A program made the translations under genes and the position numbers. DNA of 31,430 nt from Candidatus Diapherotrites archaeon CG11_big_fil_rev_8_21_14_0_20_37_9 (GTDB lineage: Archaea > Iainarchaeota > Iainarchaeia > Iainarchaeales > Iainarchaeaceae): positions 1 through 31,430 of the forward strand of contig PCWY01000022.1 in the NCBI GenBank assembly GCA_002762975.1, written 5' to 3'. A model generated the notes under the pieces. That model had not been told where the DNA came from. It was given only the letters and a program-made list of their open reading frames with translations, and did not search any database. Within the stretch, counting starts at the first letter, position 1. Every line of letters begins with the position of its first letter. Shown here in pieces: positions 6,646-22,240 of this stretch.

Positions 6646-7302
6646 TTATTCAATGTTGCGTATTTCATTTCCATGCTGATCCATAATTTTTTTCCCATGG
6701 CCTAGTTTTCTTCCTTCATTTTCAAGTGTAATTATCCTATGCCCGCTTCTTGTTTTGGCTAATAATTCTTTTTGTGCAGCAAGAATCATTCTTGTTTTTG
6801 GTCCGGTTTCAGGTTCAAAAAGAGTGTCAAAAAATTCTGCAAGAACACCCATTTTTCTTTCATGATCTGCAAGCTGATCTCTCATTCTTTCTATTTTCAA
6901 ATAATCATGGCTTTCGTTTTTCAATTCTCTTCGAAGTGCAATTCCTCTGCTCTGAAGCATCGCATACATTAATTTGTATTCCCTTATAACTCTAGGATTA
7001 TGATCAATAAACAAATCAGTAGCTTGTCTTACAACTGCCTGAAATTCTTCTGGGGATGCGCTTATAATATTTTTTATTATTGGTTTTCCGCTGTGGTCAA
7101 AAAGAATTGTTGGTTCCTTAACTTTTTCCCTAGGTTTTTCAGTTGATTCACCACGCAGTGCCTTTGCCCTATCTTGCGCAGGTTTTTCAAAATATCTCGC
7201 AGGCAAACTTAAATCATGGCTTATGAGTTCTCCGCTTGGCCCGTATAAAACTCCTTTGATTCCTTTAGGTAAATTATGCCCATGCACTGTAACCCGTTTC
7301 AT
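6646..7302 (-). CDS. Hypothetical protein with three short hhDxxGxxI-like motifs
   Basis: 218-aa ORF containing LYGPSGELI, LFDHSGKPI and IMDQHGNEI. A TATA-like tttaaatt lies about 25-30 nt upstream on the minus strand. Confidence 0.7.
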   Translation of the reverse strand: MKRVTVHGHNLPKGIKGVLYGPSGELISHDLSLPARYFEKPAQDRAKALRGESTEKPREKVKEPTILFDHSGKPIIKNIISASPEEFQAVVRQATDLFIDHNPRVIREYKLMYAMLQSRGIALRRELKNESHDYLKIERMRDQLADHERKMGVLAEFFDTLFEPETGPKTRMILAAQKELLAKTRSGHRIITLENEGRKLGHGKKIMDQHGNEIRNIE

Positions 7303-7358
7303 TAAGAATAGTAAATTTTCCTTTAATTTAAACCTTTCCTGCTTGTTTTAGCGATACT

Positions 7359-7368
7359 TATTTAAATT
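7359..7368 (+). promoter_or_regulatory. Putative TATA box of the leu/ilv leader transcript
   Basis: TTTAAATT at 7361-7368, starting 28 nt before ATG 7389; spacing fits an archaeal leaderless start. Confidence 0.55.
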
Positions 7369-7388
7369 TCTAGGACTTAATTATTAAC

Positions 7389-7457
7389 ATGAATTTTAAT
7401 GCAAGAATAAGGAAATTAGGCATTTTGCTTGTCCTTGTACTTGTATTGCTAGCTTAA
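7389..7457 (+). CDS. Putative Leu/Val/Ile-sensing leader peptide MNFNARIRKLGILLVLVLVLLA
   Basis: 22 codons with 7 Leu, 3 Val and 2 Ile; 11 of the last 13 are branched-chain. Lies directly upstream of leuA-ilvB-ilvN-ilvC-leuB. Confidence 0.8.
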   Translation: MNFNARIRKLGILLVLVLVLLA

Positions 7458-7530
7458 GCACCCGCAAAAATTTTCGACTTCTGCGGGGTGCGATTCCAAA
7501 AACACAGAAGTCTTTATAGTAAAGAAGGAG
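7458..7530 (+). promoter_or_regulatory. Attenuator-like alternative hairpins of the leu/ilv leader
   Basis: gcacccgca (7458-7466) with tgcggggtgc (7482-7491) excludes gacttctg (7476-7483) with cagaagtc (7505-7512), which is followed by ttta and then aaggag (7525-7530). Confidence 0.65.
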
Positions 7531-7558
7531 AAATGAAAAAAAAAGAAAAGTGAATTTA

Positions 7559-9109
7559 ATGGAAAAAAAAGTAATTAGAATTTTTGACACAACGCTTCGT
7601 GACGGTGAACAAAGTCCGGGCGCGACACTTTCGCATAAAGAAAAAATTTTAATTGCACAGCAACTTGAACGCCTTAATGTTGATATTATTGAAGCTGGTT
7701 TTCCTGTTGCCTCAAAAGATGATTTTAAAGCAGTGAATGAAATCGCAAAAATACTAAAAAAAAGTATTGTTTGTGCTCTTGCAAGATGCAAAAAAGAGGA
7801 TATTGATGTTGCTGCAAAAGCACTTGAGCCTGCAAAGAAAAAAAGGATTCATGTATTCCTTGCAACATCCCCAATCCATATGAAGTACAAGCTCAAGATG
7901 GATGAATCGCAGGTTCTTGAAGAGGCAGAGAAATGGGTTAAGTATGCAAAGCAGTTTGCTGAGGATATTGAATTTTCTCCTGAAGATGCCGGACGATCAA
8001 ATCCTGAATTTCTTTACAAGGTTCTTAGTGTTGCAATAAAAGCAGGCGCAACAACCCTCAATATACCTGATACTGTTGGTTACACTGAACCTGCAGAGTA
8101 CGGAAAATTAATTAAAGGAATAATTGAAAATACTCCTGGATATCATAAAGGAATTATAATTTCCACGCATTGCCATGATGATCTTGGTTTGAGTGTCGCA
8201 AACAGCCTTGCCGCAATTGATGCAGGCGCGACACAGGTTGAGGGTACAATAAATGGTATTGGTGAAAGAGCAGGAAACACTGCGCTTGAAGAGGTAATAA
8301 TGAACCTTCATTCAAGAGAAAATTATTTCAATGCAACAACCAACATTAATCTTTCAGAAATTTACAATACAAGTAGGATGGTTTCATCTTTTACTTCTCT
8401 TGTGGTTCAGCCTAATAAGGCAATTGTTGGAAGGAATGCGTTTGCGCACGAAGCAGGTATTCATCAGCATGGGATTCTTGCAAACAGGGAAGTTTATGAA
8501 ATAATGAATCCAAAAACAATTGGAAAGGAAACTGAACTTGTTATTGGCAAACATTCAGGAAAAGCAGCTATTAATGATTTTTTAAAAAAGAATGGCTATG
8601 ATTTAAACGAACCTGATGTTGCAGAAGTAACTGAAAGGGTTAAGGCTCTTGCGGATAAGAAAAAAATTATTTTTGATGAAGATGTAATTGCAATTGCAAA
8701 CAGCATTACAAACAGCCTTGAACCTGAAACGGTTTTTGTAAAACTCGAAGAAATAATTATTAATACAGGAAATAAAATGAAACCAACTGCAACTGTGAAG
8801 CTCAGTTATCTTTCACATGAAAAAACAGCAGTTGCTTCAGGAGTTGGACCTGTTGATGCAATGGCAAAAGCAATAAGCTCCGCGCTTGGGGAAAAATTTG
8901 AATTAAAAGAATACAATCTGAAAGCAATAACAGGCGGGACTGATGCGCTTGCTGATGTCACTATTGTGGTTTCAAATAAGGGTGGAAAAATTTTTAGTGC
9001 TGAATCACTGAATGAGGACATTACAATGGCTTCTGCTGAGGCTCTGATAAAGGGTATTAATAAAGCAATTGCGTTTGAAAAAAATGAAAAGGGAGATGAG
9101 TCAAAATGA
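7559..9109 (+). CDS. leuA: 2-isopropylmalate synthase
   Basis: [38 protein letters not shown] and a C-terminal regulatory domain with G.GPVDA. Start is GTG 7550 or ATG 7559. Confidence 0.93.
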
Positions 9110-10800
9110 ACGGTGCGCAACAATTTCTTAAATCTTTGAGGAAAAACAAAGTAGAACATGCTTTCGGCATTCCTGGAGGAGTGCTAATTCCATTCTATGA
9201 TGAATTGTATAAGGATAACAGCGGGCTTAAACATATTCTTGTAAGGCATGAGCAAGCAGGAGCCCACATGGCTGAGGGTTATGCAAAAGTATCCGGAAAA
9301 GTAGGCACATGCATTGGAACATCAGGACCTGGTGCCACAAATCTTGTTACAGGTATTGCGGATGCGTTTATGGATTCTGTGCCAATTGTTGCGATTGGCG
9401 GACAAGTTGCTACATCTCTTATAGGAAAGGACGCTTTTCAGGAAGCAGATATGATGGGAATTACGAATCCAATTACAAAGCATAATTTCCAGATAAGAAA
9501 TCCGAATAAGATTGAATCTGTTGTTGATGCGGCTTATTTTATTGCTTCCACAAACAGACCCGGTCCGGTTTATATTGATCTTCCTAAAGATACTCAGCAA
9601 AAAGATGTAACTGGTTCTGAAAAGGTAAATTTATCTGGTTACAAAGTTCTTGAAGGTTTTGATAAAGAGGCTGTAAAGGAGGCTGCAAAACTTTTACTTT
9701 CTGCACAAAGACCTGTAATTCTTGTTGGCGGTGGAGCAGTTCATGCGAATTGTTCACAGGAATTAAAGCAGCTTGCTGAAATTTGTATGATTATGGTTGC
9801 AAGTACCAGTCAAGGTAAGGGCGTTTTTGATGAAAGGCATCCGCTTTCAATTGGCATGACAGGAATGCATGGTAAACCGCCTGCTGTTTTTGCAATTCAA
9901 AAAAGTGATGTGCTTTTTACAATTGGAATGCGTTTCGATGATCGTGTTACAGGACAATTGAATTCTTTTGCACCAGAAGCAAAGGTTATTCATATTGAAA
10001 TTGATCCTAGTGAGATTCACAAAAACAGAACTGCTAACATCCCTATTCTTGGTGATGCAAAAGATGTTCTTACTGAATTAGTTATTGTTATAAAAAAAAT
10101 GCAATGGAAGAACACTGCTTGGTTGGATAAACTGAAATTATTGAAGAAAGAATACCAGGATGATAATCTTGATATTAATACTGAGCCGATTGATCCGAGA
10201 AAATTGATGTTCGAGCTTCAGAAAGTAATTGATGATGACACTATTGTTGCAACAGGTGTCGGCGAGCATCAAATGGATGTTGCGCATTTCATTAAGTTTG
10301 CAAAACCAAGAAAATTCATTACTTCAGGCGGTCTTGGAACAATGGGTTTTGGTTTTCCTGCAGCAATAGGCGCGAAAGTTGCGATGCCAAAAAATGATGT
10401 AATTAATGTTGATGGTGATGGTAGCTTTATGATGACAATGCAGGAACTTGCCACAGTAAAGGTCAATGATATCAAGGTTACTAATATTATAATGAATAAT
10501 GGTTACCTTGGAATGGTAAGAAGTTGGCATGATCTTTTCTATGAAGGTAGGAGAAGCCAGGTTCATCTTGGAAAAATACCTGATTTTGAAAAGCTTGCAA
10601 ATGCATTTTCGCTTGAGGGCATTACTGTTGAAAGGCCATCTGAAATAGGAGATGCATTTAAAAGAGCGCTTGCAAGTGATGGTACTTCTATAGTGAATGT
10701 GCATGTTAAAGAGGATGCAATTGTATTACCTATAGTTCCTGCAGGTGCAAGCAACAGCAAGATGATTGGAGATATGATTCCAAAGGATTATTTTGAATGA
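9106..10800 (+). CDS. ilvB: Acetolactate synthase large subunit
   Basis: FGIPGG, RHEQAGAHMAEGYA, SGPGATN, GQV, TSGGLGTMGFG and the ThDP motif GDGSF...NN. ATGA overlap with leuA. Confidence 0.95.
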   Translation: MNGAQQFLKSLRKNKVEHAFGIPGGVLIPFYDELYKDNSGLKHILVRHEQAGAHMAEGYAKVSGKVGTCIGTSGPGATNLVTGIADAFMDSVPIVAIGGQVATSLIGKDAFQEADMMGITNPITKHNFQIRNPNKIESVVDAAYFIASTNRPGPVYIDLPKDTQQKDVTGSEKVNLSGYKVLEGFDKEAVKEAAKLLLSAQRPVILVGGGAVHANCSQELKQLAEICMIMVASTSQGKGVFDERHPLSIGMTGMHGKPPAVFAIQKSDVLFTIGMRFDDRVTGQLNSFAPEAKVIHIEIDPSEIHKNRTANIPILGDAKDVLTELVIVIKKMQWKNTAWLDKLKLLKKEYQDDNLDINTEPIDPRKLMFELQKVIDDDTIVATGVGEHQMDVAHFIKFAKPRKFITSGGLGTMGFGFPAAIGAKVAMPKNDVINVDGDGSFMMTMQELATVKVNDIKVTNIIMNNGYLGMVRSWHDLFYEGRRSQVHLGKIPDFEKLANAFSLEGITVERPSEIGDAFKRALASDGTSIVNVHVKEDAIVLPIVPAGASNSKMIGDMIPKDYFE

Positions 10801-11276
10801 ATGGGGGTGCATGGGTTATGGAAAAATATATTATAAAATTTCTTGCAGTAAATTCAAGAGGAGTAATTGCACGGCTTTCTGCTCTTATTGCAAGAAAAGG
10901 TTTCAATATTGAGTCTTTTTGTGCAGGCCATCATATCAAAGATGGTGAAAGTTCTATTGTAATAACTTTTTCAGGGTCTGAGGGAGATGTTCAGCAGGCT
11001 GTTGCACAGATGAGCAAACTGATTAACATTATCAGTGCTGAATATTATCACGAAAAGGATGTTGTACAGCGTGAGCTTCTTCTTGTGAAACTCAAAAATG
11101 TTTCAGGAGTAAAAGAAAAGGCTCAGGCTCTTGGCGGCAGGCTTATGAAAGAATATAGTGGATTTGTTGATTTTGAATTTGTCGATAAACCAAACAGTAT
11201 TGAAAAAAATGTCGCTGAATTAAAGAAAAATTTTACTGTGATTGATATTTCAAGGAGCGGTAACAATGCGATTTAA
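10797..11276 (+). CDS. ilvN: Acetolactate synthase small (ACT regulatory) subunit
   Basis: N..GVIARLSALIARKGFNIES ACT domain, QMSKLINII, QRELLLVK and terminal SRSG. Alternative start ATG 10818. Confidence 0.85.
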   Translation: MNGGAWVMEKYIIKFLAVNSRGVIARLSALIARKGFNIESFCAGHHIKDGESSIVITFSGSEGDVQQAVAQMSKLINIISAEYYHEKDVVQRELLLVKLKNVSGVKEKAQALGGRLMKEYSGFVDFEFVDKPNSIEKNVAELKKNFTVIDISRSGNNAI

Positions 11277-11321
11277 TAAAAATTTGCATTGGAAAATATT
11301 ATTGATTAATGGGGTGATGAT

Positions 11322-12305
11322 GTGAAATTTTTGAAGGACAAAGATGCTGATGTTAATTCAGTAAAGGGAAAAACTATTGCAGTTATTGGTTATGGTGCAC
11401 AGGGTGCTGCTCAGGCAATGTGTATGAAAGATTCTGGTCTTAACGTAATAATTGGATTGAGGCAGGGCAGCGAGAAATGGAAAACTGCAGAACAGTATGG
11501 TTTTGAGGTTCTTGAAACAGCAAAAGCTGCTGAGAAAGCCGATATAATCCATGTTCTTATGCCTGATGAAAAGCAGGCTGATGCATTTGAAAATGACATT
11601 AAACCTCATTTAACAAAAGGAAAAACTCTTTCATTTTCACATGGATTTAACATTTGTTACAAGTTCATTGTTCCTCCAACAGACATTGATGTTATAATGG
11701 TTGCGCCGAAAGCCCCTGGCACAGAAGAAAGAAAACAGTTTTTGCAGGGCTTTGGTGTTCCTGGTCTTATTTCAATAAGGCAGGATGTTTCAGGCAATGC
11801 AAAAAAAACCGCGCTTGCAATGGCAAAAGCATGTGGTTTCACAAGGGCAGGAGTAATTGAATGCACTTTTGAACAGGAAACATTTGAGGATCTTTTCGGA
11901 GAACAGGCTGTTCTTTGTGGAGGGCTTTCTGAATTGATTACTACAGGCTTTGAAACTCTTGTTGAGGCGGGTTATCCTGCTGAAATGGCTTATTTTGAAT
12001 GCCTTCATGAAACAAAACTCATTGTTGACCTTATTTATGAAGGCGGAATGACTCATATGTGGGATGTTGTTTCAAATACTGCTGAATACGGTGGCAGGAC
12101 AAGAGGAAAGGCAATTATAGATCCTGAAGTAAAGCAGAGAATGAAGAAGCTTCTTGCTGATGTTGAATCAGGGAAATTTGCCAATGAGTGGATTGCCGAG
12201 TATAAAAGCGGATTGAAGAATTTCAAAAAACTCAGGGAAGAGCAGAATAACCATGAGATTGAAATTGTTGGCAAAGAGATTAGGGATCTTTTCAAAAAAG
12301 AGTGA
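11322..12305 (+). CDS. ilvC: Ketol-acid reductoisomerase
   Basis: [48 protein letters not shown] and [17 protein letters not shown] precedes the GTG start. Confidence 0.96.
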
Positions 12306-13447
12306 TTTCATTGGTTAAATATAAAATTGCGCTGATGCCCGGAGACGGCATCGGTCCCGAAATAATTTCTGAGGGCAGAAAAGTAATTGATGCTGTTTCA
12401 GAGCTCAATGGATTTGAAATTGATTGGGTTGAGTATAATAATGGCGCCGAGAAATATCTCAAAACTGGTGAATTAATTACTGAAGAAACCCTTGCGGAAA
12501 TTAAGGGTTCATGTAAAGCAATTTATCTTGGCGCGCTTGGAGATCCAAGGTGCAAGCCAGGTATTTTAGAAAAAGGAATTCTTCTCAAAACAAGGTTTTA
12601 TTTTGACCAGTATGTTAACTTAAGGCCAATTAAATTACTTGATGGTGTTGATTGTCCGCTTAAGGGTAAGGGTCCAAAGGATATTGATTTTACTGTTGTA
12701 CGCGAAAACACTGAGGACTTTTATGTTGGCATAGGTAATCGTGTTGGTAAAGGAAATTCAAAGCAGGGGCTTGAAGTTCTTCGTGAATTGTATAAAGTTA
12801 AATTTGGTCTTGATATTGAAAGCACGGATGAAATTGCTTATCAGATTGGTGTGATGAGCAAATCTGGTGCTGATCGCGTGATAAAATATGGGTTTGAACT
12901 TGCAAAAAAAGAAAATGTTGAAACAGTTTATTTTGTTGACAAGGCAAATGTGCTTTCCGACATTTATGGTTTTTGGCGTGAAAGGGTTGAGTTGCAGGCA
13001 AAGAATTATCCTGGCATAAAACCTGAGTTCATGTTTGTTGACGCAATTACCATGTGGTTTGTGAAAAATCCTGAATGGTTTAAGGTTGTCACAACTCCGA
13101 ACATGTTTGGTGATATTATAACTGATTTAGGCGCAATGATTCAGGGTGGTTTAGGTTTGGCGCCTGGCGGAAACATTAATCCTGATGGAATTTCAATGTT
13201 CGAACCAATTCATGGTTCTGCTCCAAAGTATAAGGGTCTTGATACTGCAAATCCACTTGCAACAATATGGGCAGGTGCATTAATGCTTGAGGAAATAGGT
13301 GAACCAGAATCAAAGGAGCTTATTGTGAATGCAATTCAGGAAATTTTGAAAGAAGGGAAAGTAAAAACAAAAGACCTTGGTGGCACGCATAAATGCAGTG
13401 AAATGGGTTCTGCTGTTGCTGAAAAGTGCAAAGAGCTTTTTCAGTAG
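12302..13447 (+). CDS. leuB: 3-isopropylmalate dehydrogenase (isocitrate/isopropylmalate dehydrogenase family)
   Basis: [33 protein letters not shown] and FEPIHGSAP, plus operon context. Confidence 0.85.
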
Positions 13448-14885: not shown

Positions 14886-14978
14886 ATGTTATACGCTACA
14901 ATTGCAAAGAATGATTCAGCTGTTTCAAAAGTAGCTTCGGCATTTGCTTTTTATTTCTATTTCTTTTTCTTTAAATAA
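14886..14978 (+). CDS. Putative Phe/Tyr-sensing leader peptide MLYATIAKNDSAVSKVASAFAFYFYFFFFK
   Basis: 30 codons ending FAFYFYFFFFK (7 Phe and 3 Tyr in total), 102 nt upstream of pheA. Confidence 0.8.
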   Translation: MLYATIAKNDSAVSKVASAFAFYFYFFFFK

Positions 14979-14979
14979 C

Positions 14980-15029
14980 ACCCTTTCTGACCTTTGGCAA
15001 GAAGGATTGGGTTTCCAAAAAGTTTTTTT
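14980..15029 (+). promoter_or_regulatory. Attenuator-like hairpins and T7 tract after the Phe/Tyr leader
   Basis: Imperfect stem accc/gggt plus tttct/agaag (14980-15012) competes with ttgg-gttt-ccaa (15007-15018). T7 at 15023-15029. Confidence 0.5.
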
Positions 15030-16260: not shown

Positions 16261-17091
16261 ATGGTTATGGAAGAAACAAATGCATTGGCAATATTTCAAG
16301 GCAAGAAAATAAGGAGAACCATGCATGATAGCGAATGGTGGTTTTCAATCGAGGATATTGTAAAAGCTCTAACTGATTCTCAGGATCCAAAACAATATAT
16401 CAATAAATTGAGAAAAAGGGATGAACCCCTTTCAAAAGGGTGGGTACAATTTGTACATACCCTTCCTGTTTTAACTTCTGGGGGAAAGCAAAAAGTGAAT
16501 TGTTCTAATACTAAAGGTATTTTTAGAATAATCCAGTCAATTCCCTCTCCAAAAGCCGAACCATTCAAACTCTGGCTTGCTAAGGTAGGGTATGAAAGAG
16601 TAGAGGAAATTCAAAATCCTGAACTTGCTCAAAAAAGAATGAAAGAATTGTACAAACAAAAAGGTTATTCTGATGACTGGGTTGAAAAAAGAGTAAGAGG
16701 AATTGCAATTAGGGATGAACTAACTGATGAGTGGAAAAAAAGAGATGTAAAAACAAATAAAGAATATGCTATTCTTACTGCTAAAATTTCAAAAGAAACG
16801 TTCGGCATGACTCCTGGTGAATACAAGAAATTCAAGGGTTTGAAGAACGAAAACCTAAGGGATTATATGGATGATTTAGAACTCATTTTTTCAATGTTTG
16901 GAGAAAGAGTTACAACCGAAATAACCAAAAATCAAGACACCAAAGGGTTTGATGAATGTAAGGGTGCGGCAAAAAAAGGCGGAAAAGTAGCAGGAAATGC
17001 AAGAAAAGATGCTGAAAAACAGATTGGAAAACCAATTTCAAAAAAAGATAATTATAAGCAATTAACGGAAAAAAAGAAACTTAAAAGGTAA
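16261..17091 (+). CDS. Bro-N domain protein (phage antirepressor-like DNA-binding protein)
   Basis: F.GKKIRR....EWWFSI.DIV..LTDS.DP.QY, and GIFRIIQSIPSPKAEPFKLWLA.VG.ER.EEI.NPEL. Confidence 0.85.
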   Translation: MVMEETNALAIFQGKKIRRTMHDSEWWFSIEDIVKALTDSQDPKQYINKLRKRDEPLSKGWVQFVHTLPVLTSGGKQKVNCSNTKGIFRIIQSIPSPKAEPFKLWLAKVGYERVEEIQNPELAQKRMKELYKQKGYSDDWVEKRVRGIAIRDELTDEWKKRDVKTNKEYAILTAKISKETFGMTPGEYKKFKGLKNENLRDYMDDLELIFSMFGERVTTEITKNQDTKGFDECKGAAKKGGKVAGNARKDAEKQIGKPISKKDNYKQLTEKKKLKR

Positions 17092-22165: not shown

Positions 22166-22238
22166 GGGGATATAGCATAACCTGGTAGTGTACCTGGCTC
22201 CAGACCAGAGGATGGGGGTTCAAATCCCTCTGTCCCCA
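22166..22238 (+). tRNA. tRNA-Trp (anticodon CCA), intron-less, CCA tail not encoded
   Basis: Acceptor ggggata/tgtcccc plus discriminator A, D-arm gcat/gtgt, anticodon arm ctgg-ct-CCA-ga-ccag (CCA at 22200-22202), T-arm ggggg-ttcaaat-ccctc. Confidence 0.93.
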
Positions 22239-22240
22239 CA

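Follow-up and report, generated by a model that had tools for sequence, protein, structure and literature searches.

We propose that a very short open reading frame (ORF) at the head of the leuA-ilvB-ilvN-ilvC-leuB operon of a Candidatus Diapherotrites archaeon (DPANN, order Iainarchaeales) is the sensing part of a ribosome-mediated attenuator that responds to leucine and valine. The window—i.e. the whole stretch of 31,430 nucleotides that was analysed—holds this leader frame 101 nt upstream of leuA. The whole statement, with its OFF/ON switch, we hold at a probability of roughly 0.6, and its parts do not stand equally firm: that the frame is an amino-acid-sensing regulatory leader is highly probable, with the reservation that neither translation nor regulation has been shown experimentally; that the output is hairpin-driven premature termination in the form written below is tentative and, in our estimate, falls somewhat short of an even chance. 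The sensing step appears well supported by the comparative evidence; the output step is inferred, and is partly contradicted by the missing terminator. The features on which the argument rests are collected in Table 1.

Table 1. Features of the two leader regions and of the leu/ilv operon (positions in the window).
Feature	Positions	Strand	Basis or remark
Archaeal promoter: BRE-like purine stretch and TATA box TATTTAAA (7359-7366)	7351-7367	+	30 nt before the ATG
Leader ORF	7389-7457	+	ATG at 7389, TAA at 7455-7457; 22 sense codons
H0, hairpin within the ORF	7397-7448	+	outer helix 7397-7405 (codons 3-6) with 7440-7448 (codons 18-20)
H0, inner helices	7407-7413 with 7432-7438; 7417-7422 with 7426-7431	+	
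H1 hairpin	7458-7491	+	7458-7466 with 7482-7491, G7485 bulged; begins 1 nt past the TAA
U4 tract in the H1 loop, A5 before it	7471-7474	+	sequence
E3, 5′ arm of the alternative helix	7476-7483	+	in the H1 loop, 2 nt shared with the H1 3′ arm
TTCCAAAAA element after H1	7494-7502	+	A-run conserved in the family; same 9-mer after the Phe leader hairpin (15013-15021)
E5 (CAGAAGTC), 3′ arm of the alternative helix, then TTTAT	7505-7517	+	nearly invariant; pairing part 7505-7512
Purine-rich spacer before leuA	7518-7558	+	contains AAGGAG and a 6-codon mini-ORF (7533-7553)
Operon leuA-ilvB-ilvN-ilvC-leuB	7559-13447	+	Pfam; genes overlapping or almost contiguous
leuA	7559-9109	+	Pfam
ilvB	9106-10800	+	Pfam
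ilvN	10797-11276	+	Pfam
ilvC	11322-12305	+	Pfam
leuB	12302-13447	+	Pfam
Phe/Tyr leader ORF, 30 codons, before pheA	14886-14978		TATA box at the same leaderless distance; Phe/Tyr run at the end
Elements after the Phe/Tyr leader	hairpin; TTCCAAAAA 15013-15021; T7 15023-15029		all upstream of pheA

A leader peptide of Leu, Val and Ile had been proposed at this place by an earlier, sequence-only reading, and the peptide, its tail codons and its start and stop codons were recovered exactly as given there, as was the use of four different Leu codons (TTA, TTG twice, CTT three times, and CTA). The mixed leu/ilv gene order that it had read downstream is confirmed by Pfam for leuA, ilvB, ilvN, ilvC and leuB. 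The L/V/I codons occupy positions 12-21 of the frame as a ten-codon run (7422-7451) and make up 10 of its last 12 codons; rare codons are not favoured in this leader. The frame is shut upstream by an in-frame TAG (7371-7373), 18 nt before the ATG. Tails of this kind are scarce in the genome: among 11,219 ATG-initiated ORFs of 15-45 codons in the six frames of its 1.13 Mb, three loci have at least 10 L/I/V residues in the last 12 codons; and of the 277 ORFs with a TATA-like motif at leaderless distance, the leader ORF is the sole one with at least 10 of 12 L/I/V in its tail.

The host genome (1.13 Mb, 85% complete) encodes TATA-binding protein (TBP), a KaiC-like ATPase and a split transketolase. 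Two classes of gene starts can be told apart in it: TATA-like motifs peak 27-32 nt before start codons, the mark of a leaderless gene class, and a second class carries Shine-Dalgarno (SD)-like motifs 9-14 nt before its start codons. Because its TATA box lies 30 nt upstream, as in the leaderless class, the leader ORF probably belongs to that class and its ATG probably stands at the very start of a leaderless mRNA; this is inferred from geometry, with no mapped 5′ ends. A C directly precedes the ATG, which gives a pyrimidine-purine start site. The TATA box keeps the same distance in 12 of the 13 members of the window's own family, and the start codon lies at leaderless distance from a TATA box in all lineages. 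A second promoter after 7512 was considered and rejected, as TATA-like sequence occurs there in few relatives only and its distance to leuA does not fit.

The leader is conserved across the order. A LeuA orthologue was found in 49 of 196 Iainarchaeales genomes, and 50 upstream regions, falling into 10 families, were read; on the first pass 46 of these had an ORF of 20-40 codons with a Leu-rich end. The leuA gene of one genome (G175) also has the leader, with six extra codons; in G026 (family f5) leuA is third in its operon and a Leu leader stands ahead of the first gene; in G049 leuA is preceded by an aminotransferase-like reading frame, and no leader was found there in the first pass; in G097 there is a Leu-rich frame without an ATG in the stretch read. 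The f5 operon headed by the Leu leader (L014, G026) has three members, namely a 133-aa ORF without known function, ilvE and leuA.

What is kept between families is the Leu-rich tail and where the stop codon stands, the N-terminal halves of the peptides diverging widely; within the window's family, the peptides also share a conserved V-L-L-A C-terminus. In 54 leaders, taken over their last 12 codons, U occupies codon position 2 in 75% of cases (79% within the family) and entropy is lowest there; codon position 3 is the most variable. The comparison of small upstream ORFs in relatives thus met the prediction that had been made for a leader, namely conserved L/V content and position with free drift of the remaining sequence. 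Two outcomes that would have counted against a leader did not occur: in the relatives the mini-ORF is found only ahead of leuA or ilvB operons, and not away from ilv/leu genes; and it is not the remnant of a longer gene, given the stop codon 18 nt upstream and an ORF that is short everywhere (about 20-40 codons). The claim that all three branched-chain residues match the mixed operon holds in part: Leu and Val are conserved, and Ile, present twice in the window's peptide (I7 and I12), is not, with a mean of 0.4 per last 12 codons in relatives. Judged from the aligned codons, the conserved signal is Leu plus Val, and Ile is no conserved component of it.

The codon content of the leader follows the gene content of the operon behind it. 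We located ilvB in all genomes, read the operons, and counted Val codons among the last 12 of each leader. Where the leuA operon includes ilvBNC (n = 24, seven families), the leader has 2-4 Val codons, whereas leaders of leuA operons without ilvBNC (n = 21) have 0-2, and 17 of them none; separate ilvB operons (n = 10) have a Val+Leu leader of their own, with 2-6 Val codons. The correspondence is kept within families: in f11, ilvBNC stands behind leuA only in G128 and G139, and Val-containing leaders of that type occur only in these two genomes; in f25, the two genomes without ilvBNC (G097 and G102) have Leu-only tails. It is kept within single genomes as well, seven of which carry both a Leu-only leader before leuA and a Val+Leu leader before ilvB. 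On comparative sequence alone, this contrast is the strongest argument that the codons are regulatory, and explanations for it other than sensing of charged tRNA are hard to find. In G175, the separate ilvB operon (L243, 2337-2475) has a Val-rich leader followed by an H1-type hairpin, a CGAATTCTG arm and a CAGAAGTC element, as in the leuA leader of the window; before leuA, this genome has a Leu-only leader with an RNA different from that of the ilvB leader.

The same data bear on an alternative close to one that the sequence-only reading had itself raised, that the peptide is a signal peptide or a small hydrophobic membrane protein, or a remnant of one, that stands before leuA by accident. The basic N-terminal half followed by a hydrophobic run, and the V-L-L-A end that is conserved within the family, are what such a peptide might show. 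The run, however, comprises 10-13 residues, too few to span a membrane (about 18-20), and it ends at the C-terminus; the frame is closed on both sides, with no mature domain after the run; and the conserved N- and C-terminal codons are explained by a covarying hairpin within the ORF, H0 (see below). The ORF is always before leuA or ilvB, and its Val codons come and go with ilvBNC, which is not expected of a signal or membrane peptide. We therefore regard this alternative as very improbable and the leader-peptide reading as supported, in the absence of an experimental demonstration of regulation.

Two RNA hairpins, one within the leader ORF (H0) and one just behind it (H1), are backed by covariation; jointly, the covariation observed was reached by none of 500 shuffles. 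H0 has a predicted minimum free energy (MFE) of −20.8 kcal/mol, against −9.4 ± 2.7 kcal/mol for shuffled sequences, and its outer helix shows changes on both sides in six of nine pairs, with 86% of cells paired (alignment A7). By pairing the opening codons of the ORF with its closing Val-Leu-Leu codons, H0 accounts for the nucleotide-level conservation of both. H0 could serve as a pause signal, in protection of the 5′ end or in control of re-initiation. In H1 (27 sequences, model-guided alignment), 93% of cells are paired, against 37-64% in slid controls; eight of nine pairs have changes on both sides, and again no shuffle of 500 matched it. Counted from the stop codon, the first hairpin begins at −3 to +4 nt in 52 of 54 leaders, and the hairpin sequences themselves are unrelated between families. 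A run of at least four T lies inside this hairpin in 38 of 54 leaders, mostly just 5′ of its 3′ arm; in the window, the U4 tract may be a site of pausing, of termination or of aCPSF1 binding. MAFFT with RNAalifold on the raw alignments found almost nothing, the 3′ arms being out of register, and the alignments used here were made with covariance models that took the window's sequence as seed (R1, R2); such model-guided alignments are fitted to the structures, and the paired percentages are somewhat inflated by this. The arms of H1 resemble mimics of SD and anti-SD sequences.

The evidence for the helix that would compete with H1 is of another kind. Its 3′ arm, E5, lies 46-50 nt from the stop codon in 13 of 13 family members, and pairing of E3 with E5 is found in 82.5% of cells, against 42-55% in slid controls; the helix shows no covariation, 117 of 500 shuffles doing equally well. 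In three relatives E5 has changes that are uncompensated, and it persists in relatives without a good partner arm; its near-invariance suggests, so far as conservation can tell, an additional sequence-specific role. The E5 motif occurs in no other intergenic leader of the genome; that 7505-7512 is a general motif of the genome could be discarded, as the extended motif occurs once outside the leader, within a gene. In most family members the alternative helix has 10-12 bp and reaches 4-6 nt into the 3′ arm of H1, so that the two structures would be mutually exclusive; an H-type pseudoknot, in which H1 and the pairing of 7476-7483 with 7505-7512 exist together, is less likely for the same reason. 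In MFE folds, the RNA up to 7504 forms H1 (−13.4 kcal/mol), and with the stop codon and the following 12 nt covered, as by a terminating ribosome, it forms the alternative helix at a similar energy (−11.3 kcal/mol); covering these positions switches the MFE structure from H1 to the alternative helix in 9 of the 13 leaders of the window's type.

The behaviour of the two repeat halves could also be read in another way: the region may be an RNA or DNA element recognized by a protein or a ligand, with 7476-7483 and 7505-7512 as an operator or a protein-binding RNA, and the ORF no more than a by-product of pyrimidine-rich arms. Conservation of both halves in sequence without compensatory change is as expected for a protein site, and so is a nearly invariant 7505-7512 that is kept where no good partner exists. 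Such an element leaves unexplained, however, the period-3 pattern of the tail codons, the leaderless distance of the start codon in all lineages, the stop codon fixed beside H1 in 52 of 54 leaders with unrelated hairpins, and the correlation of Val codons with ilvBNC; nor did Rfam return a match. We consider it improbable as a replacement for the leader, if not to the degree of a membrane or signal peptide; a protein site could coexist with the leader.

In the attenuator that we propose, the leader would be a cis-acting peptide ORF at the 5′ end of the probably leaderless leuA-ilvBNC-leuB mRNA, and the ribosome translating it would gauge how much charged tRNA-Leu and tRNA-Val is available. Where both are plentiful, the ribosome would reach the stop codon at 7455-7457, where its footprint would cover the 5′ arm of H1; with H1 blocked, 7476-7483 would pair with 7505-7512, giving the OFF state. 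With Leu or Val in short supply, the ribosome would stall among the ten L/V/I codons at 7422-7451, upstream of H1; a ribosome held at codons 12-19 would not cover the 5′ arm of H1, and H1 would form once transcribed, lock 7476-7483 away and let the operon be read—the ON state. Translation, stalling, the exchange of H1 for the alternative helix and the action of the OFF state are all inferred. The OFF state might act through premature release of the transcript at TTTAT (7513-7517), through cleavage-coupled termination by a homologue of aCPSF1/FttA, or through an effect on leuA translation or mRNA stability.

The output is the weakest part of this proposal. No terminator-like site was found in 7200-7700, and behind the alternative helix there is only TTTAT (7513-7517); in some relatives the hairpin is followed by T4-T9. 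The same Leu/Val sensor might therefore be coupled to another output: factor-dependent termination, mRNA cleavage by aCPSF1/FttA on exposed U-tracts such as 7471-7474, or control of leuA translation or mRNA stability. The absence of a hairpin-plus-U-tract terminator from the window favours such an output, as do the U-runs of 4-8 inside or right after the first hairpin in 43 of 54 leaders. Published archaeal terminators are U-tracts of four or more that require no hairpin and are read together with aCPSF1, which binds U4 in single-stranded RNA and cleaves on its downstream side (PMC8716108); the genome encodes a 632-aa beta-CASP protein of aCPSF1 size. In addition, TTCCA within the TTCCAAAAA element (7496-7500), a 9-mer that recurs after the Phe leader hairpin, pairs in the MFE fold with TGGAA (7560-7564) at the start of leuA. 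Against this stand two points: the window's sole U4 tract, placed in the H1 loop, is unpaired in either state, which leaves unclear how ribosome position would gate it; and the pairing to the leuA start has just 5 bp, with conservation not shown. A different output is possible, and in our estimate less likely than not; it would leave the Leu/Val sensor itself in place.

Other families point to variation downstream of the sensor. In sister families the elements are arranged otherwise, with a U-run after H1 and with pairing between the H1 5′ arm and the end of the ORF. In family f25, pairing joins the final codons of the ORF to a stretch just past the stop codon that overlaps the 5′ arm of H1, and H1 has a U-run behind it; in G102 of this family there are matching changes in all three pairing partners. 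From these sequences, H1 in f25 looks like an OFF element; the pairing rests on direct reading of nine sequences, in which the alignment register differs between rows. The role that we give to H1 may hence not be general: the sensor would be conserved and its wiring not uniform.

Between E5 and leuA lies the purine-rich spacer, in which an AAGGAG is followed after 2 nt by the 6-codon ORF, M-K-K-K-E-K (7525-7553 in all); for the leuA ATG (7559) there is just a weak SD-like AGTGA. In relatives, too, the spacers are A/G-rich, and the length from the stop codon to leuA varies from 72 to 257 nt. Outside the Iainarchaeales, the best LeuA matches (loci L034-L110 and L112-L190) are bacterial (Clostridia, Aquificota, Chloroflexota), at 50-54% identity. 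LeuA scans of metagenomes and genomes gave mostly bacterial LeuA at about 50% identity, and one new relative only (L111). It is possible that the operon was acquired from bacteria, which, in a pattern-limited search, is only a hint. There is no sign that the leader was brought along with a bacterial operon: an L/I/V-rich small ORF was found upstream in 2 of 153 bacterial-type leuA loci, and neither is similar.

The window holds a second leader of the same design, before pheA, and 12 relatives have leaders rich in Phe, Tyr and Trp ahead of pheA; relatives in which pheA sits within an operon have no such leader directly upstream of it. A scan of the genome for further leaders gave only the Leu and the Phe cases as clear ones. 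The TTCCAAAAA element after the Phe leader can pair with TTTGGA at codons 3-4 of pheA, and the pairing with a downstream start at both loci could be chance. The window's only tRNA gene, tRNA-Trp (CCA) at 22166-22239, is followed after 88 nt, and on the same strand, by trpE, with which the trp operon opens. A Bro-N domain gene (16261-17091) that separates pheA from the split transketolase genes looks like an inserted mobile or viral gene.

In bacteria, attenuation by leader peptides is a textbook outcome of the coupling between transcription and translation. The enterobacterial leuL, ivbL (ilvBN) and ilvL (ilvGMEDA) leaders are classical cases of ribosome-mediated transcription attenuation, with a Leu-only leader before the leu genes and a Val+Leu leader before acetolactate synthase genes. 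The window's leader resembles them in several respects: a short ORF with a run of end-product codons heads the biosynthetic transcript; the stop codon stands right beside a hairpin, with a second helix that could compete with it; and the division of labour between Leu and Val+Leu leaders is reproduced across Iainarchaeales genomes. It differs from them in its archaeal host, its TATA promoter and an ORF that lies without a ribosome-binding site at the (inferred) 5′ end of the mRNA; in that the regulatory codons form the 3′ arm of H0, with their partner upstream inside the ORF; and in the lack of a U-tract terminator after the second helix and of a match to an Rfam leader family. Rfam gave no match at gathering score in the window, and none of relevance at E up to 10 in 7250-7620.

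Three bacterial systems come close in other ways. In Corynebacterium glutamicum, the leader peptide of ilvBNC is described as lacking a ribosome-binding site and rich in Ile, Val and Leu (PMC11857589, PMC10272879; Morbach 2000, through a citing paper), and leaderless poly-Cys small ORFs of mycobacteria are regulatory leaders (bioRxiv 10.1101/834739). These share with the window's leader a start that is leaderless or without a ribosome-binding site ahead of an amino-acid biosynthesis operon, which in Corynebacterium is also ilvBNC; unlike it, they are bacterial, their outputs are bacterial terminators or translational coupling, and there is no sequence homology. In Staphylococcus aureus, a Leu-rich attenuator peptide precedes a mixed ilv-leu operon (PMC5794164), as here; that system is bacterial, uses an intrinsic terminator and acts together with CodY. 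By analogy, the window's leader would work like the enterobacterial leu/ilv leaders and the Corynebacterium ilvBNC leader; we do not take it for a member of either group because it has no homology to them, no U-tract terminator, an archaeal promoter, and an H0 that pairs upstream.

For archaea, a paper of 2021 stated that no example of attenuation or antitermination was known (PMC8448881). Our literature search found no archaeal leader-peptide attenuator either, but subscription journals were mostly outside its reach, and absence is unproven. It is the archaeal host that makes the leader notable. Beyond the window, we suggest that the Iainarchaeales run a family of ribosome-mediated attenuators, in which Leu, Leu+Val and Phe/Tyr/Trp leaders on leaderless transcripts control the matching operons, and in which archaea may use an output step of their own (for example aCPSF1/FttA reaching U-tracts under the control of ribosome and structure, or pausing at oligo-U) rather than a bacterial hairpin terminator; the chances that this wider proposal is right seem to us evenly balanced.

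In conclusion, the locus offers a clear comparative case in which leader codons change with the genes of the operon, within families and within single genomes. If the proposed reading is true, it would be a documented case of transcription attenuation in Archaea; if confirmed, it would mean that archaea use the position of the ribosome for gene control, it would provide a defined RNA (H0, H1 and the 7505-7512 element) for studying conditional stopping of archaeal RNA polymerase or the action of aCPSF1, and it would indicate that the reduced genomes of DPANN archaea keep fine control of amino-acid synthesis.
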